A DNA stretch of 64,000 nucleotides, from the NCBI GenBank assembly GCA_050950825.1, contig JBMNIH010000004.1, positions 544,001-608,000 on the forward strand, in the 5' to 3' direction. This document shows, one piece after another, positions 1,999-25,693 of this stretch (positions are counted from its first letter, which is position 1; each line of letters begins with the position of its first letter). The stretch comes from Clostridia bacterium. Its GTDB lineage: Bacteria; Bacillota; Clostridia; JAAYHZ01. The position numbers and the translations under genes were made by a program. Below the pieces are notes generated by a model, which was not told the origin of the DNA, did not search any database, and was given only the letters and a program-made list of their open reading frames with translations.

Positions 1999-4414
1999 TT
2001 TTTCAGAAAAAGCGGACAAAAGTATTAAGCTTTCAAATATGATTGCAACGAAATTCGGCCACGACCAAATTGCAACGGAGCATTTGCTGTACGGCTTGGT
2101 AGCCGAAGAAACCGGTTTGGCTGCAAAGGTGTTGGCCAAGCAGAATGTTACATCCCAGGCCGTTGAAGAAGGAATTAAACGTTTTGTCGGATACGGATTG
2201 AATCCCGGAAAACCGGTATCCGGATACTCTCCGCGAGCAAAGCGTATATTGGAAATGAGTTCGCGAGAAGCGAAAAAAATGAATATGGAATACATCGGCA
2301 CCGAGCATATATTATTGGCTCTGGTGAAGGAAGGAGATACGGTAGCGGTTCGAATTCTGCTGGATTTGAACGTTCAGCCGAAGATTTTGGTTAAGGATTT
2401 GATCGAAATGATGAAAAGCGGGGAAGGAGAAGGCGAGGTCAAAGAAACCAAAACCTTGGAAAAATACGGCCGCGATTTGACGAAAATGGCTAAGGAAGGC
2501 AAATTTGACCCCGTTATCGGTCGTGAAAACGAGCTTCAGAGAGTGATTCAAATCTTAAGCCGAAGAACGAAAAACAATCCTTGCTTGGTGGGAGAGCCGG
2601 GTGTAGGCAAGACCGCCATTGCCGAATTATTGGCCCAAAGAATTGCCGACGGTGATATTCCCGAAATACTGAAAGACAAAAGAGTCATATCCTTGGACCT
2701 ATCCGCCATGGTTGCCGGATCAAAATACCGTGGCGAGTTTGAAGAACGTGTTAAAAACGCCTTGGATGAAATTACTAAATCGGGAGACATCATTCTGTTC
2801 ATCGATGAAATCCACACCATCATCGGCGCGGGAGCCGCGGAAGGCTCCATCGATGCCTCCAGTATCTTAAAGCCTTCGTTGGCTCGAGGCGAAATACAGG
2901 TTGTAGGCGCAACCACGCTGGACGAATACCGAAAACATATTGAAAAGGATGCGGCATTGGAAAGAAGATTCCAACCGGTAATGGTTGGAGAACCCTCCGA
3001 GGAAGCCACTATTGCCATTTTGAAAGGATTGAGGGACCGTTACGAAGCCCATCACGGCGTAAAGATTACCGACGAAGCCATTTACGCGGCTGTTCGGCTG
3101 TCGGTTCGCTATTTAACCGACCGGTACTTGCCGGATAAGGCCATCGATTTGATCGATGAAGCCTGCTCGAAGGTCCGTCTTGCATCCTATACCACGCCTC
3201 CGGAGTTAAAGGAGCTTGAAGAAAAACTGGCCAAGCTGGAGAACCGGAAAAACGAAGCCATCAGCTGCCAAGAATACGAAAAGGCCGCTGAAATTCGAGA
3301 CAGCGAAAAGGCCTTACGCGAACAAATTGAAGTGATTCGTAACAACTGGAGAGAATCCACAAGACAGACCAACGGAACGGTGGGAGAAGAGGAAATCGCC
3401 GAATGCGTATCCCAATGGACCGGTGTTCCCGTGAGACGTTTGGACAAAGAAGAATCCAAACGATTGTTGGATTTGGAAAACATTTTGCATCAAAGAGTGG
3501 TAGGCCAAGAAGAAGCGGTAATAAGCCTGGCAAAGGCCATTCGAAGAGGAAGAACCGGATTAAAGGATCCGAAACGACCGGTGGGTTCCTTCATTTTCCT
3601 AGGTCCTACGGGTGTAGGAAAAACGGAATTAAGCAAAGCTTTGGCCGAAGCCTTGTTCGACAATGAAAACGCTATGATAAGAGTCGACATGTCCGAATAC
3701 ATGGATAAATTCAACGTGTCAAAACTGATCGGATCTCCTCCGGGATACGTAGGATACGACGAAGGGGGGCAGCTGACCGAGAAGGTAAGGACCAATCCGT
3801 ATTCGGTGGTTCTCTTCGACGAAATCGAAAAAGCGCATCCGGACGTCTTCAACGTACTGCTTCAAATATTGGACGACGGAAGGATTACGGACAGCCAAGG
3901 CCGAACCGTGGATTTCCGAAACACCGTCATCATTATGACCTCGAATGTGGGGGCTATGCAGTTGGCGGAAGAAAGACAGCTCGGATTCACGTCCCGGCAG
4001 GACAACGCCCAATCCGATTACAAGGCTTTGAAAAACAAGGTAATGTCGGAGTTGAAAAGAACCTTTAGACCGGAGTTCTTAAACAGAGTAGACGATATCA
4101 TCGTATTCCATCATTTGACCAAAGAGCATATGAATGATATCATTGAAATTATGCTAAAGGACTTGAGAAAGCGTCTGAGCAGCAAGAACATAACCTTAAG
4201 CGTGACGGATAAGGCGAAGTCATACCTCATCGAAAAGGGCTACGATAAAGCTTACGGCGCAAGACCGTTGAAGAGGGTTATTCAGAACCTTATCGAGGAC
4301 GGCTTGGCGGAAAAGATGTTGCTAAAAGAAATTTCGGACAACGACTGCGTAACAGTGGATTTGGAAGGAAACGAACTGGTATTTAGAAAGCAAAGCGTTG
4401 CAGAAAAGGTTTAA
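1982..4414 (+). CDS. clpC: ATP-dependent Clp protease ATP-binding subunit ClpC
   Basis: Clp-N repeats, two AAA modules ([16 protein letters not shown]), UVR middle domain, LGF ClpP-docking loop; start uncertain (1973/1982/1988). Confidence 0.97.
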
Positions 4415-4419
4415 CGATT

Positions 4420-5790
4420 ATGGCTAAAATTATTCATTCGTATGTGTGTTCCGAGTGCGGATACGAAACACAAAAGTGGATGGGAAGATGTCCAGGCTGC
4501 AACTCATGGAACACCTTAACGGAGGAAATCAGGACAAACGGCAAAACGGTACCCGGCTTGAAGGAAGGGGGTACCGTTCATGCCGTTAAATTGTCCGAAG
4601 TTCCGGCAGACAACGAAATACGGTACATAACTCACATTCCCGAGCTGAACAGAGTTTTAGGCGGAGGATTCGTGAAGGGATCCTTGGTCCTCATCGGAGG
4701 AGATCCCGGAATCGGAAAATCCACTCTTCTTCTTCAAATATGCGGTTCTCCCCTTATAAAAGGGCCGGTACTTTATGTGTCCGGAGAAGAATCGGCGGCC
4801 CAAATCAAGCTTCGAGCCGACCGATTAAATGTTTCAAACGACGGTATTCTTCTTTTGGCGGAAACGGATTTTAACGCCGTTTTGCCTGTGATCGAAAAAA
4901 CCGATCCTCAAATCTTGATCATTGACTCCATCCAAACCATGTACAACCCGGAAATGGGGTCCGCTCCGGGCAGCGTTTCCCAAGTTCGAGATATCACGGC
5001 CCGTCTGATGGATATCGGAAAAAAGAAAGAAATGACGGTTTTAATCGTAGGCCATGTGACGAAGGAAGGGGCCATTGCGGGACCGAGAGTTTTGGAGCAC
5101 ATGGTGGATACGGTTTTGTATTTCGAGGGAGAGCGGCATATGCAGTACCGAATCCTGAGAGCCGTAAAAAATCGTTTCGGATCCACTTATGAAATCGGAA
5201 TATTCGAAATGACGGACAAGGGTTTGACGGAAGTGGAGAACGCCTCGGCGACGATGCTGTCCGGAAGAGATCCGGATAAACCCGGTTCCGTTGTGACGTC
5301 GGCTTTGGAAGGAACGCGTCCTCTTCTTTTGGAGATCCAAGCGCTTGTCAGCAAGTCTTTTTATCCCGTGCCGAGAAGAATGGCTACAGGGTTGGACGAT
5401 AACCGTGTCAACATGCTTTTGGCGGTGGCGGAAAAATTGGCGGGACTGCCTCTTATGCAGGACGATGTCTATGTGAATATTGCCGGCGGTTTTAAGATAG
5501 GAGAGCCTGCTTGCGATACCGCCGTTATTGCGGCCATCACGTCCAGCTTGTATAACAAATGCATACCTTCCGATACGGTGGTTATGGGCGAGGTAGGCTT
5601 AACCGGAGAGGTACGCGCCATCTCCGGTATTGAAAAAAGAATCGGCGAATGCGCTCGCATCGGATTCAAAAGATGCCTTATTCCGAAATCCAACTTTGAT
5701 TTGATCGAAAATAAAAACGCATGGAAAATAAAGCTGGAAAGTGTTCCGGATGTAAGAACGTTGATTCGACTTTTATTTCAATCGAAATAG
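4420..5790 (+). CDS. radA: DNA repair protein RadA/Sms
   Basis: N-terminal C4 zinc finger, GDPGIGKST Walker A, KNRFG motif, Lon-like C-terminus. Confidence 0.97.
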   Translation: MAKIIHSYVCSECGYETQKWMGRCPGCNSWNTLTEEIRTNGKTVPGLKEGGTVHAVKLSEVPADNEIRYITHIPELNRVLGGGFVKGSLVLIGGDPGIGKSTLLLQICGSPLIKGPVLYVSGEESAAQIKLRADRLNVSNDGILLLAETDFNAVLPVIEKTDPQILIIDSIQTMYNPEMGSAPGSVSQVRDITARLMDIGKKKEMTVLIVGHVTKEGAIAGPRVLEHMVDTVLYFEGERHMQYRILRAVKNRFGSTYEIGIFEMTDKGLTEVENASATMLSGRDPDKPGSVVTSALEGTRPLLLEIQALVSKSFYPVPRRMATGLDDNRVNMLLAVAEKLAGLPLMQDDVYVNIAGGFKIGEPACDTAVIAAITSSLYNKCIPSDTVVMGEVGLTGEVRAISGIEKRIGECARIGFKRCLIPKSNFDLIENKNAWKIKLESVPDVRTLIRLLFQSK

Positions 5791-6260: not shown

Positions 6261-6435
6261 TAACATAAATAAAAAGGAAATAATACCATTTACCCTATGG
6301 TTTCCATGAGCAGCCGAATCGGTATTTCCCGGTCTTTCATGTTCTTTTCAATAAAAAAAGCCCGTCGCCGCCCTTTTGTCGGCGGCATTGAGCTTTTTTA
6401 AAGAATCGAAAGGAGGTTGAACTTAGCAATTTTTA

Positions 6436-7872
6436 TCATCTTTGCGATGATTTTTTTGTTTTCCCTTTTTTGAAAATGAAATCTCGAAAGCAAATAATAT
6501 TTATGATAACAAACATAACCGTTAAAATGATAAGGGTGATCCATGCATGGTTTCGGCTTTGAGGCGCTACGGCCAACAGAAGAAGCAGCGGGAATCCGAA
6601 TACGATAGCCCACAGCTGTTGGAATACCAAGTTGGTTGCGGCGGGAGTTTCGAATCTCGGGTCGATTTCACGCAAGAGGATAATTCCCGTGCTTGCGGTA
6701 CCGGTCAGCATTCCGTACATGGTCAACCAAGCTTCGTCCGCATAATGGGGGAACAGCTTTTTGCAGACGATACTCATGTGAATGTAGGTGATTACCCCTG
6801 CTATAATACAGATTAAGGACAGAGGGACGATAAACTCTTTGATCTTAAAGGCCGAAAGGTCGATGGCGGCAATGGAAGCTACCACCATCATGTCGAACAT
6901 GAATCCGGCGATTCTCGACTGCATAAAGTCGTTTCGGTATTCTCGCTGCATCAAGCCGCTTTTTTGCAGTCCTTTTAATATGAGCTTCAGAACAATGGCA
7001 AAAACCGTACCGAACAGGAAGTTAAAGCCCCATATTAAAGGCTGCACCGTTTTGTAGCCGAAGTCTCCCAGCCACCCGGCTTCCACCATGGCGTTAATCC
7101 CCGCCATAAAACCGTATGCCATGATGTATCCGATGAATACGAGAGCGATTTGGACCGTCATTTTGTCCATGGATTCCGACAGCGGAATTTCGTTGTGGCC
7201 GGTGATAATCTCCGCGGTGAGGTTTTCATCTTTAATGTTTTGCCCCATATCACCGTGATAACGACCCTTTCTCTTCAAAATGTTTAAATAAATGACACCG
7301 CCGATACTTGCCGATACGAATCCCATGGCCGCAACGGCCAAGCCAAAGCTGGTACCGTTTTCGAATCCGTAGTTTACTTCATAATTATGCCCCCAGTTGT
7401 ATGCTTGCCCGGGACCTTGTCCGTATCCCATGGGAGTCAGTAAGCCTGCGGCGAAAAAGTTATTCATAACGTAGGATAAACCGATTGTGATAGCCAAACC
7501 GATGATGCCTTGGAGAAGATAAGACGAAACGGTGGTCAAACCGGTATTGAAAATGTCTTTTTGCCTGTTCTTATCCTTTTGCTTTCCGACGGATTTCATG
7601 GACATGGCTACGAACCCGAGTCCAAGACCATGATACGTAAGCGCCTCCAGCGTCGAGGTGAGAAACATCGAAGACCCCGTGATTTTTTTGAATATGAAAT
7701 CCACAAACAAAATCAAAAATCCACCTAAAACCGAGCTGGGTATCATCAGTTGGCGAAGGGGTTTAATTAATTGCCTTAAAGTATTGGCCAATATCATACC
7801 GACGAGCAAAATAGTGATGGTAATTACAAACGACCATATTTCGGCATCCCAAAAGTTTAATCCTGAAACCAT
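6436..7872 (-). CDS. Sodium:glutamate symporter (GltS/ESS family)
   Basis: Polytopic membrane protein with IPSSVLGG, GQGPGQA and YGMLTGTASTG motifs; start uncertain. Confidence 0.8.
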   Translation of the reverse strand: MVSGLNFWDAEIWSFVITITILLVGMILANTLRQLIKPLRQLMIPSSVLGGFLILFVDFIFKKITGSSMFLTSTLEALTYHGLGLGFVAMSMKSVGKQKDKNRQKDIFNTGLTTVSSYLLQGIIGLAITIGLSYVMNNFFAAGLLTPMGYGQGPGQAYNWGHNYEVNYGFENGTSFGLAVAAMGFVSASIGGVIYLNILKRKGRYHGDMGQNIKDENLTAEIITGHNEIPLSESMDKMTVQIALVFIGYIMAYGFMAGINAMVEAGWLGDFGYKTVQPLIWGFNFLFGTVFAIVLKLILKGLQKSGLMQREYRNDFMQSRIAGFMFDMMVVASIAAIDLSAFKIKEFIVPLSLICIIAGVITYIHMSIVCKKLFPHYADEAWLTMYGMLTGTASTGIILLREIDPRFETPAATNLVFQQLWAIVFGFPLLLLLAVAPQSRNHAWITLIILTVMFVIINIICFRDFIFKKGKTKKSSQR

Positions 7873-16677: not shown

Positions 16678-18044
16678 TGTGGATATACACGCTTTTACCT
16701 CAAATTCTAAACATGAGCATAACGGCAAGCATAGTTATCATTCTCGTACTTGCAGCCCGATTCCTATTGAAAAAAGCACCGAAGGTATTTTCATATGCCC
16801 TTTGGGCTGTTGTTCTTTTCCGCCTTATTTGCCCCGTATCTTTTTCATCTCCAATTTCATTGATAGGGTTCATTTATCCTTCGGCAAGAACGGTTGACAA
16901 TGGCGCTTACAGCAGTCTCACTTATATCCCTACGGATATGGTACCGCAGGTGGATTTACCGGTACCGGGTATTAATGGAGCCTTACATGGCATCCTGCAT
17001 GAGGGCGGGGAGGGGACTTCCGGCGCTTCGCTTGAATTCCCGATGGCTTTTGCCACAATGCTCTGGCTTTTCGGTATCGGGGTAATGATGATATACGGCG
17101 CAGTTTCATTAATCCGCTTGCGTAGAAAGCTCACCGGCGCCGTCCGGCTGCGGGAAAACATCTATCTTGCCGACCATATCGTCACTCCGTTTGTTATCGG
17201 CATACTGCGTCCGAAAATTTATCTCCCTTCGACGCTTCGGGGGGAAGAACAGAGCTATGTTATCCTGCATGAACAGACGCATATCCGTCGACAGGACCAT
17301 CTTGTTAAAATGTTTGCTTTCCTCGTTTTGGTTGTTCATTGGTTTAATCCGCTTGTATGGGTTGCTTTTGTATTTATCGTTAAAGATATGGAGATGTCCT
17401 GCGACGAGCGGGTCATAAAGCTCATGGGTGACGATATCCGCGGTGAATACTCGACGTCTTTGCTGTCTTTATCGGCGGGGAAGCGCCTGATAAACGGCGG
17501 TATGCCTGCCTTCGGCGAGGAGAATATCAAGGGACGTATCAGGAACGTCATGAACTATAAAACACCGGCGGCTTGGGTTGTTATCCTTTCAATATTATTT
17601 GTGGTCGCTCTGAGCGTAGGTTTAGCGTTGAACAAGTATTTGGTTACATTGAATGTGGAAAATATTGCCGATGCCATTCTCACAACCGAGATAGAAGGAT
17701 GGTACCCGCTTGCAAAAGGCACGCCGTATCATCTCAATGAAGAGGAATTAAATTCTATCATCGAGTTGGTTAATAAATCATCGAAAAAACCCATTTTAGA
17801 TAAATACAAGCCAACCTACGGAGATCTGTATAAGACGTATTGCACAATTCAATTCGTGATGGCAGGTGCAAACGGCGTACCCGAAGGAACGTACAGGCTT
17901 CAGCTATACAATCATAAGGATTGGAACATCCTTCGCGGTGAAAGCGAGTATAAGCTTGCGCTCGTTGATACCGACGGAAATAAAATGTGGCAGCTCTCGT
18001 ATGATACATGTTACCAATTTAAGAGCCGCTCGAACAATATTTAA
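16677..18044 (+). CDS. BlaR1/M56 family metallopeptidase sensor with a non-PBP C-terminal domain
   Basis: HEQTH zinc motif, HWFNPLVW, EMSCDE; TM helices. Confidence 0.9.
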   Translation: MWIYTLLPQILNMSITASIVIILVLAARFLLKKAPKVFSYALWAVVLFRLICPVSFSSPISLIGFIYPSARTVDNGAYSSLTYIPTDMVPQVDLPVPGINGALHGILHEGGEGTSGASLEFPMAFATMLWLFGIGVMMIYGAVSLIRLRRKLTGAVRLRENIYLADHIVTPFVIGILRPKIYLPSTLRGEEQSYVILHEQTHIRRQDHLVKMFAFLVLVVHWFNPLVWVAFVFIVKDMEMSCDERVIKLMGDDIRGEYSTSLLSLSAGKRLINGGMPAFGEENIKGRIRNVMNYKTPAAWVVILSILFVVALSVGLALNKYLVTLNVENIADAILTTEIEGWYPLAKGTPYHLNEEELNSIIELVNKSSKKPILDKYKPTYGDLYKTYCTIQFVMAGANGVPEGTYRLQLYNHKDWNILRGESEYKLALVDTDGNKMWQLSYDTCYQFKSRSNNI

Positions 18045-18276
18045 ATCGATTGAATTCCTCTGAAGAAAATATGGACATCGGATAAAAGGAATGATTGCCT
18101 CATTCGTTTGAAAATCACGAATATGATAGACGTGATGAGTTTGATATAAAGTGTACCCTTTGTCAAGGACAAAATGAGTTTTTGATTTCAATTCATAAAT
18201 GAGTATTCAGTGGCTGTTGATTCACCTGTCCCGGACTTTGAGTACTACCATACCGGTGTTTCGGAGTCAGGTTTCC

Positions 18277-18447
18277 GCATTTATTCCACGATCCTCTTGA
18301 CAACGAGCCTCTGCCGGCATGTTTGCTGGCATCAGAGGCATCCCCCATGCTGAACAAGGCAGAAGGGCTCTGGAGGTGGTTGATGCCCGGTCAGATAGCC
18401 TAACATGCCGGGCTCTCATTGTCAAGAGGCTTTCGCGGCATAAACGC
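18277..18447 (-). other. Conserved ~170-nt hairpin element (copy 1), candidate ssDNA promoter/origin or structured RNA
   Basis: Nested inverted repeats; homologous to 23274-23439 with compensatory changes. Confidence 0.7.
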
Positions 18448-18457
18448 TGCCTTCCCA

Positions 18458-19417
18458 TCAGCTCTCCTTGAATCCATTTGGCTTGGGTATATTTAGTGGA
18501 TACTCGCCAGTTGTTAAATATTTGTAATACTCTGCAGGAGATAGCTTTGCTAAATCCCATTGATATCTTTCGTAGTTATAATACTCTGTCCAGTCAGTTA
18601 TTGCTGATAGGATTTCTTCATAAGTGTTACACTCTTCGATATGAATTTCATCCTTCATATGTCCGAAGAAGGACTCTTGCGGAGCGTTATCCCAGCAGTT
18701 TGCCCTTCTGGACATTGACTGCCTTAATTCGCTGTTTTTAATCAGCTGTATAAAACTAAGACTAGTGTAATGTGACCCTTGATCACTGTGGATTAGGGTT
18801 TCTGCCGTTAAGGAAATCCCATGTTTTTCAATGAGCTGATTCACTGTCTCAAGTACAAAATCAACTTCCAAAGATGGACTCACTACCCATGCTAGGAGTT
18901 CTTTTGTACAGGCATCTATAATAGTAGACATATAGCATCTAGGTGCTCTACCGTTAATAATATATGTGATATCTGTAAGCAGAACTTTCCGTGGTCCATG
19001 TTCCTCAAACTCGCGATTCAGGAGATTTGGAGCGACATAGGAAGTACCTATCGCTTTTGCTATACGTCTGTATGGATTTGCTTTGCGAATTGGGCATTTT
19101 AATCCATACTTCTTCATAAGACGCCGAATCTTTTTTATGTTCATGACAACCGGTGGAGTCTGATGCAGTAATCTCATATAAATCCCACGTGCACCCTTAT
19201 CATATCCTCTGTGTTTATATGCTTCTATGATGAGAAGAAAATCCTGTTGATCCTGTTCTTCTTTCTGTTTTCTAACTTCTTCTGTAGTGAGATAGTGATA
19301 ATAGCCGGATCTAGAAACACCAGCGATTTCGCACAGGACAGAAACATTTAAAAGATTCCCATGCAGTGCTACTGTTTCTTGTATGATTTTATACTTGGCA
19401 TTTGCAGGAATGATCAT
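18458..19417 (-). CDS. IS3-family transposase OrfB (DDE/rve)
   Basis: TDITY, IHSDQGSHY, CWDNAPQESFFG motifs. Confidence 0.95.
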   Translation of the reverse strand: MIIPANAKYKIIQETVALHGNLLNVSVLCEIAGVSRSGYYHYLTTEEVRKQKEEQDQQDFLLIIEAYKHRGYDKGARGIYMRLLHQTPPVVMNIKKIRRLMKKYGLKCPIRKANPYRRIAKAIGTSYVAPNLLNREFEEHGPRKVLLTDITYIINGRAPRCYMSTIIDACTKELLAWVVSPSLEVDFVLETVNQLIEKHGISLTAETLIHSDQGSHYTSLSFIQLIKNSELRQSMSRRANCWDNAPQESFFGHMKDEIHIEECNTYEEILSAITDWTEYYNYERYQWDLAKLSPAEYYKYLTTGEYPLNIPKPNGFKES

Positions 19418-19818
19418 AATTCCCGTGCCTCCGGATCTAAAGATACAATTTTTTTTAGAAACTCTATCTCTTGCTCCTTATATGCCAGTTGCATCTCTAG
19501 GTATTTAATCCTGTTTTCTGCTGACATATAGCCGTTTCCAGCTTGCATATAAGTATTCAAGTCACGGAATCCATTGCCTTTTTTTACTTCATTACGGATC
19601 ATTGTTTTTAATCCGCCAATCCTTATTTCGCCTAGTATCTCGGGATTAATGCCAAGAGATTTAACTATATCTTTTGGTAATTTCCCTTGCATTAGTGCAT
19701 TCCAGAATTCTTTTTTGAATTCCGCAGAGAAGTGTACAGTGCTTGGTGATACATCCAGAACATACTTGCTTTTTCTTAACTCGGACATTTCTTCTGGGGT
19801 AAATTTCTTATTTGCCAT
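19414..19818 (-). CDS. IS3-family OrfA; probable -1 frameshift to OrfAB at an A8 run
   Basis: Ends EIEFLKKI; CTAAAAAAAATT slippery site near 19449-19456 with the -1 frame open into orfB; ATGA overlap; GGAGG RBS. Confidence 0.88.
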   Translation of the reverse strand: MANKKFTPEEMSELRKSKYVLDVSPSTVHFSAEFKKEFWNALMQGKLPKDIVKSLGINPEILGEIRIGGLKTMIRNEVKKGNGFRDLNTYMQAGNGYMSAENRIKYLEMQLAYKEQEIEFLKKIVSLDPEAREL

Positions 19819-19882
19819 ATATGCCTCCAATCCAACTACATTTATTGTAATATGCATCTGAATTGAAGTCAAAAACTGTTCT

Positions 19883-20030
19883 TGTCCGGAATATAGGGTT
19901 TTGAAAATGCATGTGTCCGAACAACAGGGATTATATAAAATCTATTGTCCGAAATGTAGGGTTTTTTCAAAAACCTAATGTCCGATGGTAAGGGTTTTGA
20001 AAACCCAAAGTGTCCAAGCTATAGGGTACA
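19883..20030. repeat. Five phased TGTCC-N7-AGGG repeats at the IS3 left end
   Basis: Copies start at 19883, 19914, 19946, 19979, 20011; the same motif forms the core of both terminal IRs. Confidence 0.85.
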
Positions 20031-20080
20031 TTATAGATAGTTGCGACGAGATAAAAACAATGTTTTGCCCTGAAATGTCA

Positions 20081-20105
20081 AAAACCCTTGCAGCGCAAGG
20101 GTTTT
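20081..20105 (-). terminator. Hairpin downstream of tRNA-Ala
   Basis: AAAACCCTTGC-AGC-GCAAGGGTTTT perfect inverted repeat. Confidence 0.65.
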
Positions 20106-20116
20106 CGGTCAAAATG

Positions 20117-20192
20117 TGGTGGAGACGAAGGGACTCGAACCCTCGACCTTTCGGATGCGAACCGAACGCTCTCCCAGCTGAGCTACGCCCCC
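20117..20192 (-). tRNA. tRNA-Ala (anticodon CGC)
   Basis: GGGGGCGTAGCTCAGCTGGGAGAGCG...TTCGG-TT-CGC-AT-CCGAA...GGTTCGAGTCCC...CTCCACCA; 76 nt, G3-U70 pair, encoded CCA. Confidence 0.97.
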
Positions 20193-20303
20193 ATACAAAC
20201 GAGAATATTATACCACATTTTAAATTTTCGTAAATAGAGTATAGAGTATTATCAAAGAAATCAAAAACTTTTTACAAATGACGATGAGCCTATACCGGTA
20301 CCT

Positions 20304-21809
20304 TTATAATACCTTTAAAAGGTCCTGCAGTAACAACCAAGCTTTTTCGTCTATCGCTTTGCATTCGTCAATAAGATAACCGATTTTTTCACGTATTTCA
20401 CGGGATGCAAGCGCTTGAATCTGTTTCTCTCCGCGCTCCCAACCGCCCAATACTTGGTACATTTTTAATGCGCACGCCGCCGATTCGGCAAATCGTTCCG
20501 CAATTTTTGCATATAACGGTTGCTTCGGATTTTTATCGGCCAGCTTTTTAAAGTATTTATATGCGTTTTTACGCCCGTCGGCAAGACAATCTACGGCATC
20601 TTGATGACACATAAGTCGTTCCACAAGCAGGGAGCTTACCATGTCTTTATTGATTTGACTTTCGTCCAATAGAGCCTTTTTCCATGCTTCATAAGCATAT
20701 CCGGCTTTTGCATATTCATAATGCCTTCTCGGCGTCATAACCTCGATAGCGTTTTCAACGACGTTTCTTACCGTGTATCTTTTGCCGGTGATTTCCCCGA
20801 ATGACATAAGTGCATTGGTACTTTGATTTTCCCACCACCGGTCGGTTATATAATAACCGGATTCGTCAAAACGTACGTTTGCAGCATATTCCGAGTAATT
20901 CTGAAACACGTTCCATCCTAATAGGATATTGCCGTTATCGCGATAACCGGTTATGATTCCCGGTTCGGGAGGACCGATGACACCCCTTGCGATCACCGGG
21001 ATACCGTTATCAATTTTTTCTTTAATGAAGTTTATAAACTCGGCCTTTTGGGTTGTTTGCGATCGGCCGATCAGATTGAATTGACAACCTATAGACTCGA
21101 TGGCACGGCGGAACACCTTGGAAGGGTCGTCAAATGTAAAAATATCGCCCACGTTACCTCCGTCCCAAGTCGTTTCGTTCCAACTAAGGCGAAAAGCCAT
21201 ACCGCAATAGACGATTGCATCCGTATAGTCCAGCTCAATCCCCATGTAATTCGCCGCCGCTTTCATACAAATCGGTAGGGGAGTGATCCCGCCGAACGCA
21301 CCGTAATGAACCTTAGGAACACCGTATAAAACAACGCTTCCGTCCGATACATGTCTTTGTTCATGGTTATTCATTTTTACAATCCCTTCCTTTTCTTTTT
21401 GAGAAACCGGATTGAAATTTATAGATACGCCGAAAACACCGGCAGTTAAAACGGTACGGCCGACAGATCGTTTTTGTCTTCGAAAATCGCTCGGATTAAA
21501 ACCGGTAATACGCTTGAAAGCTCTTGTAAAAGAATCCGGATTTGAAAAACCGTATTTTGTAGCAATGTCCAAGATATTTTTATCACTATGAGAGATGTCA
21601 AAAGCCGCATGTGCAATTCTTCTGCTTAAAACGTAGCGGGATAAGGATTTTCCCGTCAGCTTGGAAAAAACGGATCGAATATGCGACAGAGAAAACCCCA
21701 CCGCCTTTTCAAGCTCCGCATACTCGAAACCGGTTTGTAACCTATTTTCAACGAATATAATGACCGAAGAAACCATAACATATTGATCCATCACATCACA
21801 ACCGTTCAT
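20304..21809 (-). CDS. AraC-family regulator with N-terminal HTH and a large C-terminal domain (BtrH/peptidase-C39-like, tentative)
   Basis: DIATKYGFSNPDSFTRAFKRITG AraC signature in the first 110 aa. Confidence 0.82.
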   Translation of the reverse strand: MNGCDVMDQYVMVSSVIIFVENRLQTGFEYAELEKAVGFSLSHIRSVFSKLTGKSLSRYVLSRRIAHAAFDISHSDKNILDIATKYGFSNPDSFTRAFKRITGFNPSDFRRQKRSVGRTVLTAGVFGVSINFNPVSQKEKEGIVKMNNHEQRHVSDGSVVLYGVPKVHYGAFGGITPLPICMKAAANYMGIELDYTDAIVYCGMAFRLSWNETTWDGGNVGDIFTFDDPSKVFRRAIESIGCQFNLIGRSQTTQKAEFINFIKEKIDNGIPVIARGVIGPPEPGIITGYRDNGNILLGWNVFQNYSEYAANVRFDESGYYITDRWWENQSTNALMSFGEITGKRYTVRNVVENAIEVMTPRRHYEYAKAGYAYEAWKKALLDESQINKDMVSSLLVERLMCHQDAVDCLADGRKNAYKYFKKLADKNPKQPLYAKIAERFAESAACALKMYQVLGGWERGEKQIQALASREIREKIGYLIDECKAIDEKAWLLLQDLLKVL

Positions 21810-22039
21810 TTCCTCTATATGGAGTGATGTCAGTATATCATACGAAAAAAATATCTTCTCGACTTTTTTAATGATGTTAAATGAAAACCCAAACGAATTG
21901 TGTTATTTAAGATAACAACATTCATGCCGAGATAAGGGACGATTAAGTCTATATAATGGTGTAAAAAGAAGTTGAGCCAAAGCTCATACCTCGGTTAGAA
22001 TATAAGTGTCATCAAATACCAAACCGAGGAGGATGAACC

Positions 22040-23254
22040 ATGGCTCAGTTTAATATTACAATAACCGAAAAACTTTTGCACGGACTATTTTTATCAAACG
22101 GCAGGGATGAAGCATTTTCCAAGCTATTAGAGGAAATCTTCAACCAGGTACTATTAGCCCAATCTTCAGAACAGGTAGGAGCTGAACCCTATGAGAGAAC
22201 TGAAGAAAGAACTGCCTACCGCAATGGTTTTCGAGACAGACAGATGACTACTCGAGTTGGCACACTTACTCTGCGGGTCCCCAGGCATCGCAATGGTAAG
22301 TTTTCTACAGAGCTGTTTGCCCGATATCAACGCAGTGAACAGGCCTTGATACTGGCCATGATGGAGATGGTGATTAATGGGGTTTCAACTCGTAAAGTTG
22401 AAGCCATCACACAAGAGCTCTGTGGTAAATCGTTTTCTAAATCCACAGTTTCAGCTCTTTGTAAGCAGCTGGATCCCATGGTTCACGCTTTTAGGACAAG
22501 ACCGCTTGAAAGTCATTATCCCTTTCTAATTGTAGATGCTCTTTACCTTAAGGTGCGTGAAGATCATCGGGTTGAGTCAAGAGGATTACTCATCGCCGTA
22601 GGTGTCAACGAAGAAGGTTATCGCGAAATTATTGGCTTTCAGGTGGCTAACACAGAAACTGAAAGCAGTTGGGGGGAATTCTTCGCATCCCTAAAGGAAA
22701 GGGGATTAAAAGACGTTCGCTTAATTACATCCGACAATCACAAGGGGCTTGTCAATGCAGTCAAGAGACATTTTCAAGGAGCAACCTGGCAACGATGTCA
22801 AACCCATTTTTCAAGGAACATGCTGGATCACACTCCTAAAGCACTACAGCCTGTTATCAAAGAAGATCTTCGTGAGCTGTATGAAGCTGTTGACTTAGAT
22901 AGCGCTCGAAAGGTCAGAGATCAGCTCCTTGGTAAATACGGGACGATAGCTCCAAAAGCTGCTACTCTATTAGACGAATCCTTCGATGATGTCACGGCGA
23001 TTCTGGCAGTGCCCCTGAAATATCGAAAGCGACTACGTACTACAAACGGCGTGGAACGGCTCAATCAGGAAGTGAGGCGGCGAGAGCGGGTAATACGCAT
23101 CTTCCCTAATGAGGCATCCGTAATCCGCTTGATAGGTGCCCTGCTTATGGAACAAGATGAAAAGTGGCAAGCAGGCCGTAAATACTTTGATATGGATTTA
23201 TATTATCAAAGTATGGAAAACAAGAAAACCAAGGATAGAAACCCTGCTGCCTAG
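22040..23254 (+). CDS. IS256-family (mutator) transposase
   Basis: YRNG, GVSTRKV, DALYLKVR, WQRCQTHF, RTTNGVERLNQEVRRR motifs. Confidence 0.97.
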   Translation: MAQFNITITEKLLHGLFLSNGRDEAFSKLLEEIFNQVLLAQSSEQVGAEPYERTEERTAYRNGFRDRQMTTRVGTLTLRVPRHRNGKFSTELFARYQRSEQALILAMMEMVINGVSTRKVEAITQELCGKSFSKSTVSALCKQLDPMVHAFRTRPLESHYPFLIVDALYLKVREDHRVESRGLLIAVGVNEEGYREIIGFQVANTETESSWGEFFASLKERGLKDVRLITSDNHKGLVNAVKRHFQGATWQRCQTHFSRNMLDHTPKALQPVIKEDLRELYEAVDLDSARKVRDQLLGKYGTIAPKAATLLDESFDDVTAILAVPLKYRKRLRTTNGVERLNQEVRRRERVIRIFPNEASVIRLIGALLMEQDEKWQAGRKYFDMDLYYQSMENKKTKDRNPAA

Positions 23255-23273
23255 GGTACCTACTACTATCATT

Positions 23274-23439
23274 GCATTTATTCCACGGTCTGTTGACAAC
23301 GAGCCTCTCATGGCCTGTTTATATGCATCAGAGCCATCCCCATTGTTTTATCGATATGTCTTACGCTGGAGTGGTGATGCCTGGCAATCAGCCTAACATG
23401 CCATGTACTCATTATCAACAGCTTTCGCGGCATAAAAGC
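23274..23439 (-). other. Conserved ~170-nt hairpin element (copy 2)
   Basis: Homologous to 18277-18447; inside the IS256 between the transposase stop and right IR. Confidence 0.7.
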
Positions 23440-24090
23440 TTTCGTCTGGTCCGGTTGATAACATCAATGTCCTTTAGCATACCGGCTGGACAAACCGAGG
23501 TAATTTACACACTATTTTGGACTTGACTCACATTCACATTGTGGTGGTTTCTTTTTGTGTTGCGAATTGATAAAACGCATAATCATTATATAACAGTTTA
23601 TTAAAATGTGAATACATACTATTTATAATATTTTCCGGCTATAAAATTATTACCTGAAATATTTGTAAGTGTCAAAGAAATCAATACATAGAATAAAGCC
23701 TCTGTAGATAGTACCATCATAATTAAACGTGGTTGGTAAAGTCGAAAAAGATGAAAAGTTAAATGCGAAAAAAGTCCTCTAATAACAGAGGTCTTTTAAA
23801 ATGCTTCATGGTAGGTTGTGGCCGGTCTTGCGTTTTCGCCGTCCTATCCACCCTACATTTGTTTGAAACTATATTTACGCTTTCAATTATTTCTTACCTA
23901 ATCCAAACAACAATTGAATAACCGTTTCGACAATCTTCTATTCGGATTCTTCCATTTCTATATCAAACTCATTACATAATTTTAATGTATAAGACAGAGC
24001 AGCATTGGCTCTTTTTTCTTTTGGGATCTTATCATTGAAAGTTTTTATGTATTCCAAACTTATTGTCTACCAAATCGCTTTTTAAATAAT

Positions 24091-24115
24091 AAAACCCTTG
24101 CAGTACAAGGGTTTT
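24091..24115 (-). terminator. Hairpin next to the distal att site (probable original tmRNA terminator)
   Basis: AAAACCCTTG-CAGTA-CAAGGGTTTT immediately after the displaced ssrA 3' end. Confidence 0.6.
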
Positions 24116-24117
24116 GT

Positions 24118-24155
24118 TGGTGGAGGCGAGCCGTACCTCCCCATATCCACAACCA
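24118..24155. other. Distal attachment site (duplicated ssrA 3' end plus attP arm)
   Basis: Core 24118-24130; ATCCACAACCA at 24145-24155 is the inverted repeat of TGGTTGTGGAT at 31414-31424. Confidence 0.85.
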
Positions 24156-25693
24156 CCCTCGTATATGTTATGCCGACTCATGTCAATTGAGTGAATATCA
24201 AGCGTATCATCGTAGACGATAACTTTCTTGACATATGTTTGGATAATTTGCTTTTGCTCTTCCGGAGTTCTGCTCCTTATGTCGGCATCCTTAGCCAGAT
24301 ATGCTCTTATCATTTCTTCCGAAGGGGCATGAGCTTGAGCTTGGATCTTGGCTTCCTCGATCTTCAACTCGAGAGCCGATCTCTTCGCTTCGAGTTCGTC
24401 CATCTTTTCTTTCATGCTCGGGTGAAACATCCCTGCGGCTATGGCATTGACGATATTATTGATTTCGGTCTTAATGCCTGTCAAACGGTCCGTAAACGCT
24501 TTTATATCTCTGTCGATCTCTTTCGTTTGCTCGGCCGCATATTCCATTACCTTCTTGGCGATCGTGTCAATGGCCTCGGGGGAGAATACGTTTTTCTCCA
24601 GATATTCTATCACGATATTTTCAACGTAATCCTTTCGGATGTTTTTCATATCGCAGCTCTTTGTTCGCTTGCGAATAGAGCACTCATAAGTCACCTGCAG
24701 AGTTTTATTCCTGCCCGCATATCTTCGATTGCCGACCATGGCTCCGCCGCATTTACCGCAGAAAATGATACCCAGATAATAAGATACGTCTCTTTCGCCT
24801 TGTTCGCCGCTCGGACCTCGTTTCATTCTTTCTCCATTCTCGCTTGCACCCTCTCCCAGGCTTCGTCCGTCTATGATCCGAGGCATGCCGCCCTCGATTC
24901 TTGATAATCTCCTCCTCACTTTTGCTTTTGCGGTGGTTACGCTTTCCGTCTGATTTTTCGGATCGGAGCGATTGAATATGTAAACGCCACGATACTTTTC
25001 ATTTTATAAGTATCTCGTGCAAGCCGTTCTTCCCGAAACGGCCTGCCGGTCTTGTGTCCTGCAGCCAGTCTTGATTCAGCTGCTACGTATAATTTCGCCG
25101 TATCCAGAGCCAGCAGGCATACATCTCATAGATATAGCCTGTACGAGCCGGCGACTTCGTGCTCGTTGATAATGTAGGTGCCGTCCGGGGCTACGTCGTA
25201 TCCCAGCGGAGGTTTCCCGCCGGTATGTTTGCATTGCAGGGCAGTCTCTCTCATGCCCTTCATGACTTCCCGGGCAAGGTTTCGGCTGTAATATTCGGCC
25301 ATTCCCTCAAGGACGGATTCAAGAATAATGCTTTCCGGACTATCGTCCAGGTTTTCGAGAACCGATATAAGCCTGACACCGTTCTTCTTTAGCTGACGCT
25401 TATAAAATGCGGAATCATACCTATCTCGGCTGAACCGGTCCAGCTTATGTGAACGATGACAGCAGCAAACAGACCCAGGGCGCTGTCCTGTATCATCTGC
25501 AGAAAGCCAGGTCTGTCATCTGTTGTTGCGCTCCGGGCTTCATCAGTATATATCTTGACAAGGCGGATCCCATTTCTATCACAGTATTCACGGATAGCGC
25601 GAAGCTGAGCTTCTATTGATTCTTCGCGCTGGTTGTCACTGCTATACCTTGCGTACGCTGCTGCTTTGATCATCGGTTGCCCTCCTATATGCA

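Follow-up and report, generated by a model that had tools for sequence, protein, structure and literature searches.

Two insertion sequences in the window, the 64,000-nt stretch of clostridial DNA analysed here, each carry a copy of one ~170-nt module. This module is probably a ssoA-like single-strand origin (sso) that rides as cargo inside insertion sequences (IS) and acts on whatever single-stranded DNA (ssDNA) carries it. Such origins occur in rolling-circle plasmids and have been recognised in conjugative elements since 2015; they determine host range and how an element establishes itself once it has been transferred as ssDNA. In what follows we document the fold of the module, the strand that folds, the conservation of its promoter-like boxes and its homology to experimentally defined ssoA regions. 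That the clostridial type, which lacks the CS-6 motif, would still prime, and what its substrate would be when it rides in an IS, we infer.

Two copies of one module in two insertion sequences

Copy B (23274-23439, minus strand) lies inside an IS256-type element and copy A (18278-18447, minus strand) inside an IS3-type element. The two are ~77% alike and align as one ~170-nt module. R1, a covariance model made from six module variants of the source genome, both window copies included, scores copy B at 167.3 bits on the minus strand and copy A at 179.7 bits.

The IS256-type element (21941-23528, plus strand, ends approximate) was delimited by comparison of three genomic copies and by its terminal inverted repeats (21945-21965 and 23504-23524). 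Its transposase gene (22040-23254, plus strand) matches Pfam Transposase_mut with an E-value of 4.5e-134, and copy B starts 20 nt past the stop codon of this gene, with ~89 nt left to the right end of the element. The IS3-type element (18148-20035, minus strand, ends approximate), delimited by comparison of four genomic copies, carries orfA (19414-19872) and orfB (18458-19417) on the minus strand, with Pfam matches to HTH_Tnp_2 and to rve, rve_2 and HTH_21, respectively. Copy A starts 11 nt past the orfB stop codon, in the same sense as the transposase. The two copies share one orientation in the window and have opposite orientations relative to their transposase genes. Loose contig ends fall at the borders of both elements, at 23528/23529 for the IS256-type and at 18147 and 20035 for the IS3-type element.

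A protein-coding reading of the region around copy B (ORFs 23272-23526 and 23136-23396) was set aside, since substitutions there track base pairing. Metatranscriptome contigs (runs X15, X16, X17 and X19), which give neither strand nor ends and come from a type of library in which DNA is possibly present, span both elements together with the module, while none was found on the neighbouring AraC-type gene. Transcription through the module is possible.

Promoter-like boxes

The minus-strand sequence is TTGATA-ATGAGTACATGGCATGT-TAGGCT in copy B and TTGACA-ATGAGAGCCCGGCATGT-TAGGCT in copy A, with spacers of exactly 17 nt and a TG at -15/-14 in both. The -35-like hexamer (23413-23418 in copy B, 18420-18425 in copy A) is base-paired in the stem, and the -10 box TAGGCT occupies 23390-23395 and 18397-18402, respectively. 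Together with the preceding TGT it forms an extended -10-like element (23390-23398 in copy B, where the TG-bearing triplet appears as ACA at 23396-23398 in plus coordinates; 18397-18405 in copy A) at the mouth of an asymmetric internal loop. The window contains two occurrences of the 13-mer that surrounds the -10 box, where chance would give 0.04. Measured against the promoter consensus, the two -35 boxes match at six of six and five of six positions, the spacing is 17 and the TG is present; the -10 box agrees with TATAAT at three of six positions (T1, A2 and T6). A plain consensus promoter scan does not list the boxes of the window copies, the -10 box matching at only 3/6.

Across 96 homologues the columns of the -35 box read T95 T95 G71/T25 A92 C74 A58, so that the first two T are kept in 95/96 sequences and the A at position 4 in 92/96. 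The TG at -15/-14 is present in 77 of the 96 and the exact TAGGCT in 63. A hexamer of the form TAnnnT lies 16-18 nt past the -35 box in 74/96 homologues, and in 83/96 when distances of 14-20 nt are allowed. The stem pairs that flank the -35 box vary freely with compensation, unlike the box itself, and homologues with a different inner domain carry TG together with TAAAAT (four sequences), TATAAT (three) or TAAACT (two) at the place of TAGGCT. The promoter-like boxes are kept beyond the needs of pairing, and better -10 hexamers substitute where the inner domain differs.

The first-pass annotation had described a minus-strand promoter with an exact 17-nt spacer and a TG in both copies, and had made conservation of the -35/-10 spacing in homologues a touchstone of its reading. 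The boxes, the spacer and the TG are borne out by the sequence, in a family of 29 genome copies and 96 homologues, and the spacing is kept at 16-18 nt in the 74 homologues just counted. This promoter geometry is a trait of the family, not an accident of two copies, and it is the known working principle of ssoA-type origins.

Fold, folded strand and covariation

The -35 box and the spacer are paired in the consensus fold of the six variants, in the fold over 96 homologues and in the ssDNA folds. At the mouth of the loop the stem is closed by the first T of the -10 box; the remaining AGGCT with ~7 further bases faces three unpaired bases (AAA) on the other arm, giving an internal loop of ~12-13 nt on the box arm versus 3 nt opposite. 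The GGC of the -10 box pairs with a downstream GCC in a 3-bp mini-hairpin that is kept in 94.8% of cells, which indicates that the loop is partly closed. The earlier picture of a paired -35 box and spacer with the -10 box opening into a large bubble holds for the pairing and for the asymmetric loop; the bubble itself is not fully open, given this mini-hairpin.

Covariation supports the fold. Among the 96 aligned homologues, 93.2% of pair cells are paired compared with 74.0% after shuffling (none of 500 shuffles reaches the observed value), while controls with slid partners give 34-47%, and 49 of the 58 pairs have changes on both sides. The alignment of these sequences (A4) was fitted to the model and so favours its structure; the margin is still large. 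The basal stem (pairs 13-25 with 316-329 of A4) is kept in 93-94 of 95 sequences and contains an invariant G-T wobble, scored as GU in 90.

The folded strand is the minus strand of the window. G-U pairs occur on the modelled strand in 90, 55, 44 and 35 sequences at four pairs. A G-T wobble on the minus strand corresponds to an A-C mismatch on the plus strand, so it is the minus strand that folds. Predicted ssDNA folds agree, with -30.5 kcal/mol (z -3.77) for the minus strand of copy B versus -20.5 kcal/mol (z -1.20) for its plus strand, and -41.2 kcal/mol (z -5.39) versus -36.2 kcal/mol (z -3.8) for copy A. The wobbles and the folding scores (z -3.8/-5.4 on the minus strand versus -1.2/-3.8 on the plus strand) thus confirm the strand that had been proposed from the letters alone. 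In the IS-borne copies of several families, structure and boxes alike show clear signs of purifying and compensatory selection.

The G-U/G-T evidence does not separate RNA from ssDNA, and the module could in principle act as a structured RNA, either as a 6S-like RNA polymerase decoy, an alternative raised at first reading, or as a 3'-UTR stabiliser or processing element of transposase mRNAs. An RNA would fold alike, the RNA-library contigs include the module, and in the IS3 and ISLre2 elements the folded strand is the transposase sense strand just past the stop codon. We nevertheless regard an RNA function as very improbable: the module is antisense in IS256 (nine listed loci as well as the source genome), in IS630 (L038) and in one IS110 context (L048) while being sense in another (L079), its relatives lie on plasmids at known sso positions, and no Rfam family is matched at E<=1, 6S included. 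An Rfam cmscan of 17500-24500 at this threshold returned only tRNA and one chance match, with no 6S at the module, and the decoy found no support there.

Kinship with ssoA-type single-strand origins

By its sequence and predicted structure, the module is a homologue of ssoA-type single-strand origins. R1 matches pT181 at 3762-3932 (39.9 bits, E 3.4e-10), directly past the pre/mob gene, pC194 at 2042-2215 (36 bits, E 4.1e-9) and pE194 at 632-801 (29.9 bits, E 2.2e-7), these E-values being rough because of a short calibration. The matched stretches of all three plasmids contain TTTATGCCGAGAAAA and TAGCGA/T, the sequences quoted for the RSB and CS-6 motifs of sso in PMC6395029. In 3/3 plasmids the match lies on the strand of the rep gene (Pfam Rep_1, Rep_trans and Rep_OBD); in rolling-circle replication this rep-sense strand is the one displaced as ssDNA. 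By the account in PMC5703833, sso work in one orientation only, and RNA polymerase recognises the ~160-nt ssoA, folded in its single-stranded state, and primes it.

A blastn search of the module in distant mode against 72,556 plasmid records gave a single match, which falls in a stretch without annotation on a MOBV plasmid of 8 kb from Bacillus sonorensis. R1 scores this stretch at 78.2 bits, and blastn with the stretch itself finds matches in 76 plasmid records, 73 of them from Bacillus, most of those listed being 5-13 kb in size. Rfam gave chance matches only for the Bacillus sonorensis stretch, and the phage collection held no match to the module.

The 5' base of the folded strand carries the RSB-like motif TTTATGCCGCGAAAG (copy B 23422-23436, copy A 18430-18444, minus strand), which in both copies is identical to the quoted RSB at 13 of 15 positions. 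The 3' partner of the basal stem is CGTGGAATAAATGC (copy B 23274-23287, copy A 18277-18290, minus strand). In the family the RSB is kept as TTTATGCCGCGAAAG together with the partner CGTGGAATAAA, and its columns are conserved in 92-95 of 96 sequences; 80 of the 96 were found by a pattern demanding the RSB and the 3' partner, so that the conservation of both is partly a product of this selection.

The kinship does not extend to CS-6. A strict CS-6 (TAGCG[AT]) in the apical part was found in 2/96 homologues, which is chance level (shuffled mean 1.97), and the corresponding site reads CAGCGT in copy B and CAGAGC in copy A. CS-6 was also considered as an equivalent of TAGGCT and ruled out, because in the covariance-model alignment the pT181 counterpart of TAGGCT is TAGCTA, with CS-6 only further along. 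With the defining CS-6 absent, the module is best described as an ssoA-like sso that bears an RSB and forms a distinct clostridial type, and not as a canonical ssoA.

Copies and neighbours across Clostridia

The source genome holds 29 copies of the module, comprising 11 distinct sequences down to 70% identity. All of them lie inside IS; by Pfam, 29/29 copies adjoin transposase genes, 10 of IS256 type (three subtypes), 5 of IS3 type and 14 of ISLre2/UPF0236 type (two subtypes), and the ISLre2 copies have the module in transposase sense. One seemingly module-less copy of a 13-copy ISLre2 element (C2:188092-189582) proved to break off where its transposase gene ends and is uninformative. Among 60 further genomes of this class, R1 detects the module in nine, with IS256, IS630, ISLre2 (twice), IS110 and an HTH_38 gene as neighbours, and a pattern scan of the species collection gave at least 117 matching stretches, mostly from Clostridia metagenome-assembled genomes.

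Neighbouring genes were surveyed at 80 of these stretches, listed as loci, which gave 123 ORFs no shorter than 150 aa and no more than 450 nt away from the module; Pfam was run on 70 of these, namely those of at least 180 aa, within 200 nt and without overlap with the module. Large serine recombinases adjoin the module at 17 of the 80 listed loci, 16 of them convergent, with the stop codon 14-25 nt from the module in 15 and 122 nt in one. IS256 transposases follow at 12 loci, nine antisense-downstream as in the window and three sense-upstream, then ISLre2 at two (sense), IS3/rve at two to three (both orientations), HTH_38 proteins and DDE_Tnp_1 at two each, and IS110, IstB of IS21 and a tyrosine integrase at one each. 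A Mob_Pre relaxase gene at one of the 80 (L086) lies upstream on the same strand at 34 nt, the pre-palA layout of pT181. At several loci no mobile gene lies close by. In Clostridia the module is thus a frequent companion of mobile DNA. Mobile elements with Mob/Pre relaxase or serine recombinase genes are often transferred as ssDNA, and these contexts, in elements expected to travel as ssDNA, fit an sso.

The idea of one orientation rule per IS family was ruled out, as IS256 shows both orientations. Besides the missing CS-6, two observations speak against an sso: the window copies lie in chromosomal IS and not in a replicon known to pass through ssDNA, and the orientation to the transposase varies, being antisense for nine and sense for three of the IS256 cases among the 80 listed loci and sense for ISLre2.

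Orientation also bears on the view that the module is chiefly an ordinary double-stranded promoter, directed leftwards in the window, with the second arm acting as a terminator or insulator. Such a promoter would point out of the IS3-type element and oppose the IS256 transposase gene in direction, firing from a perfect or near-perfect -35 box with a 17-nt spacer and a TG, and the -35 box, the spacing and the TG are all conserved. At L040, L116 and L126 the module lies upstream of an HTH_38 gene and in its sense, and RNA-library contigs cover the region. We consider this account improbable all the same. A transcript starting past TAGGCT would hold one arm only, yet both arms covary over 58 pairs with strand-specific wobbles; the -10 box matches at 3/6 and is absent from the consensus scan; the direction is inconsistent relative to neighbouring genes; and the homologous elements are ones for which a role on ssDNA has been tested. 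It is possible that duplex promoter activity or a structured RNA exists as a side function, but neither explains the covariation of both arms together with the homology to ssDNA origins.

The module as cargo in a tolerant slot

Relatives of the IS256 transposase in the window with at least 76% identity carry the module, at seven distinct places in three genomes. No module was found beside relatives of 63% identity or less, in a search that covered 23 of 30 loci (six loci of the source genome and one already known being left out) and in which the downstream flank was short at some loci. In one module-less relative the right terminal repeat lies ~35 nt past the stop codon, and in another a different insert of ~130 nt with its own inverted repeat occupies the same slot. 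These module-less relatives indicate that the module is cargo in a tolerant slot and dispensable for the family.

A slot that accepts inserts might also retain an inert one, a remnant of RSB recombination or of plasmid/ICE co-integration kept merely because it is tolerated. The RSB is described as a plasmid recombination site in PMC5703833, and the slot of the IS256 relatives is indeed variable, with 35 nt, a different hairpin-bearing insert of ~130 nt, or the module. Against this, purifying and compensatory selection is clear across IS-borne copies that differ by up to ~30%, which makes inert cargo barely credible.

Proposed mechanism and substrate

We propose the following general mechanism for a single-strand origin carried in this way. 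The minus strand of the window, once single-stranded, would fold into the imperfect ~170-nt hairpin, which would rebuild a duplex -35 box and spacer and leave TG-n-TAGGCT unpaired, in the manner of a promoter that is already melted. Of the two arms of the folded minus strand, the ascending one would serve as the non-template and the descending one as the template. Host sigma-A RNA polymerase would bind, start opposite the loop and run towards the tip of the hairpin, yielding a short primer RNA of plus-strand sense, from which DNA synthesis would proceed rightwards in window coordinates. DNA polymerases would extend this primer and so turn the ssDNA into double-stranded DNA. The scheme is carried over from the plasmid relatives.

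With regard to the substrate, the most economical reading is that the module would act on any ssDNA that carries the IS in the right orientation. Candidates are the conjugatively transferred strand of an ICE or plasmid, or the displaced strand of a rolling-circle replicon, and the IS would thereby be a portable sso.

A bolder alternative is that the module is used on the copy-out intermediate of the IS itself. The strand displaced in copy-out-paste-in transposition would then be a single-stranded circle, and RNA polymerase would prime its complement to give the double-stranded IS circle. The IS families that carry the module are mostly among the circle-forming copy-out-paste-in ones, which comprise IS3, IS21, IS30, IS256, IS110 and ISLre2 according to bioRxiv 10.1101/2023.06.07.543989. 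They are represented at the listed loci (IS256 12, ISLre2 2, IS3/rve 2-3, IS110 1, IstB 1 and HTH_38 2 of 80), and IS256, ISLre2 and IS3 account for 29/29 copies in the source genome; in addition, matches to 15 DDE_Tnp_1, 7 IS110 and 2 Y1 transposases were counted as module-less, solely because the 29 modules adjoin other families. That host replication turns the figure-eight, in which one strand is bridged, into a circle of double-stranded DNA is described as established in PMC7780238.

Several findings weigh against this use. The counts are raw relative to the abundance of the IS families, and they are inflated because IS copies are clonal. The IS630 neighbour (L038) and the two DDE_Tnp_1 neighbours misfit, IS256 shows both orientations, and IS256 relatives at 60-63% identity and below do without the module, which is thus dispensable for the family. 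Moreover, 17 of the 80 listed loci lie beside serine recombinases and not IS. We judge a role in the IS's own transposition to be unlikely. A broader proposal, which we would entertain only tentatively, is that several copy-out-paste-in IS families in Clostridia each took up a plasmid-type sso, with RNA polymerase priming the displaced, circularised IS strand or, in a milder form, with the IS serving as portable sso cassettes. The possible effect of family abundance, the clonality of IS copies, the misfit neighbours and the two IS256 orientations together lead us to rank the general reading, in which the module would act on any ssDNA carrying it, before the one confined to the IS intermediate.

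Biological significance

In one genome at least three IS families carry this conserved and covarying sso-like module, in 29 copies, and in other Clostridia it occurs beside IS110, IS21, IS630 and IS30-like genes. An active module would mean that lagging-strand origins are spread by IS among plasmids and ICEs. Should the IS-circle reading be true, the single-stranded IS circle would be a real transposition intermediate, explaining the path from figure-eight to double-stranded circle in these hosts; if the milder form is true, an IS-borne sso would improve the establishment of the conjugative element or rolling-circle plasmid in which it has landed. More generally, a widespread clostridial sso type with an RSB and without CS-6 is useful for the annotation of mobile elements and for anaerobe vectors.

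Comparison with known systems

A literature search brought up no paper that describes an sso within an IS, and the closest case is the ISLrh repeat in pGK12 (PMC12016507). There, a 17-bp terminal repeat of an IS5-family element, located upstream of the plasmid's own sso, alters host range and replication. The likeness is that an IS-derived sequence near an sso affects the replication of a rolling-circle plasmid; unlike the module, no sso lies within that IS.

6S RNA resembles the module in that it, too, is a long hairpin whose central asymmetric loop imitates the open state of a promoter. The module differs in keeping DNA-promoter hexamers, whose conservation is not expected of a 6S mimic, and in having relatives among ssDNA origins.

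Other single-strand origins share the function proposed here and not the sequence. The sso of pTA1060/pTA1040/pBAA1 type are known as ssoT. R1 found nothing at the sso of pTA1060 (6349-6549) or pTA1040 (5109-5307), located by the coordinates in PMC4595007, and its best score elsewhere was 7.9 bits; pUB110, which carries ssoU, likewise gave no R1 match (best 9.8 bits, E 0.088). The sso1 of ICEBs1, by the account in PMC4595007, belongs to an integrated conjugative element and aids establishment after ssDNA transfer. It is a precedent for an sso in an integrated mobile element and not only in plasmids, although neither it nor the pTA1060-type sso matches the module in sequence or structure, and ICEBs1 is conjugative and not an IS.

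The Frpo and ssi elements of F-like and IncI plasmids are ssDNA hairpins that rebuild a -35 box and spacer, leave the -10 box imperfectly paired, and are primed or transcribed by RNA polymerase. The module has the same working geometry, with a paired -35 box and spacer and an imperfectly paired -10 box, which is a likeness and not membership. The hosts belong to a different phylum and the context differs. The blastn search of the 72,556 plasmid records matched no enterobacterial plasmid. Of the original comparison with Frpo and sso elements, the sso half is sustained by the R1 matches to pT181, pC194 and pE194 and by the RSB, and the kinship with Frpo is not.

The closest counterparts are the ssoA/palA origins. 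Like the module, they carry the RSB at the 5' base with its GGAATAAA partner, form an imperfect hairpin of ~160-170 nt on one strand only, and hold hexamers resembling -35 and -10 boxes in the ascending arm; where the module has TAGGCT, pC194 has TAAACT, pE194 TATACT and pT181 TAGCTA. In pT181, as at L086, the origin lies directly past the Mob/Pre gene. Unlike ssoA, the module is without CS-6, and its conserved unpaired element is TG-n-TAGGCT with the 3-bp mini-hairpin; its RSB reads GCGAAAG where that of ssoA reads GAGAAAA; and the window copies, in contrast to plasmid ssoA, sit in insertion sequences on the chromosome. The module represents a known class of origin, in a distinct motif type and in a new vehicle, the insertion sequence.

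Module contexts and variants

Among the 80 loci listed from a pattern scan with at least 117 matching stretches, the ssoA-like hairpin module is not confined to insertion sequences: at 16 of them (L078, L096, L099-L103, L109, L113, L121, L125, L128, L129, L134, L139 and L150) the module and a large serine recombinase gene are arranged tail-to-tail. A gap of 14-25 nt separates the recombinase stop codon from the module at every one of these loci except L078, where the distance is 122 nt. At such loci the module is probably the single-strand origin of a family of integrative elements.

The IS256-type element of the window can be compared with a relative of 60% identity in another genome (G061:C52; L216 1250-1600, minus strand). 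The two elements share the same terminal repeat. In the relative, the module slot is occupied by a different insert of ~130 nt that contains an inverted repeat (GTCAAGGGT...ACCCTTGAC) and is possibly a further hairpin carried as cargo. The ~89 nt that separate the module from the right end of the window element (23440-23528) are also present in this module-less relative, and the module is thus an insertion upstream of a conserved sub-terminal segment. A pair of modules, 340 nt apart, occurs in genome G000 (C2:38745-39254), where an ISLre2 copy abuts a truncated IS256-type copy, a nested insertion adjoining the module.

Variation also extends to the module itself. Variants (L040 1501-1669, minus strand; also L104, L131, L089, L120 and L135) retain the RSB motif at the 5' base, the -35 box and the outer stems. 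Their inner domain is unrelated, and they carry a near-consensus TG-n-TAAAAT or TATAAT at the place of the -10 box. For the copy in the IS3-type element, contigs of metatranscriptome runs X17 and X19 (depth 3.5 and 6) connect 18311 directly with 18415 and so leave out 103 nt that correspond to the hairpin interior. This join could reflect a deletion variant, or a jump of the polymerase or reverse transcriptase over the stem.

Surroundings of the IS3-type element

Several palindromic TTTTCAAAAACC-like units (inverted repeats I2 and I15) occur in the 5' untranslated region of the IS3-type element (19887-20003). Some 85 nt outside the element, past its left-hand end (20035), lies a tRNA gene (20120-20192, minus strand; Rfam tRNA, 64.1 bits), directly preceded by a promoter-like TTTACG-16-TATAAT with TG (20234-20207). 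On its other side, the element is situated ~105 nt downstream of a plus-strand ORF with an HEQTH motif, which ends at 18043 (stretch 16900-18043 and upstream). Ahead of this ORF lies a smaller one of 121 aa, and together they resemble a BlaR1/BlaI-type sensor-repressor pair.
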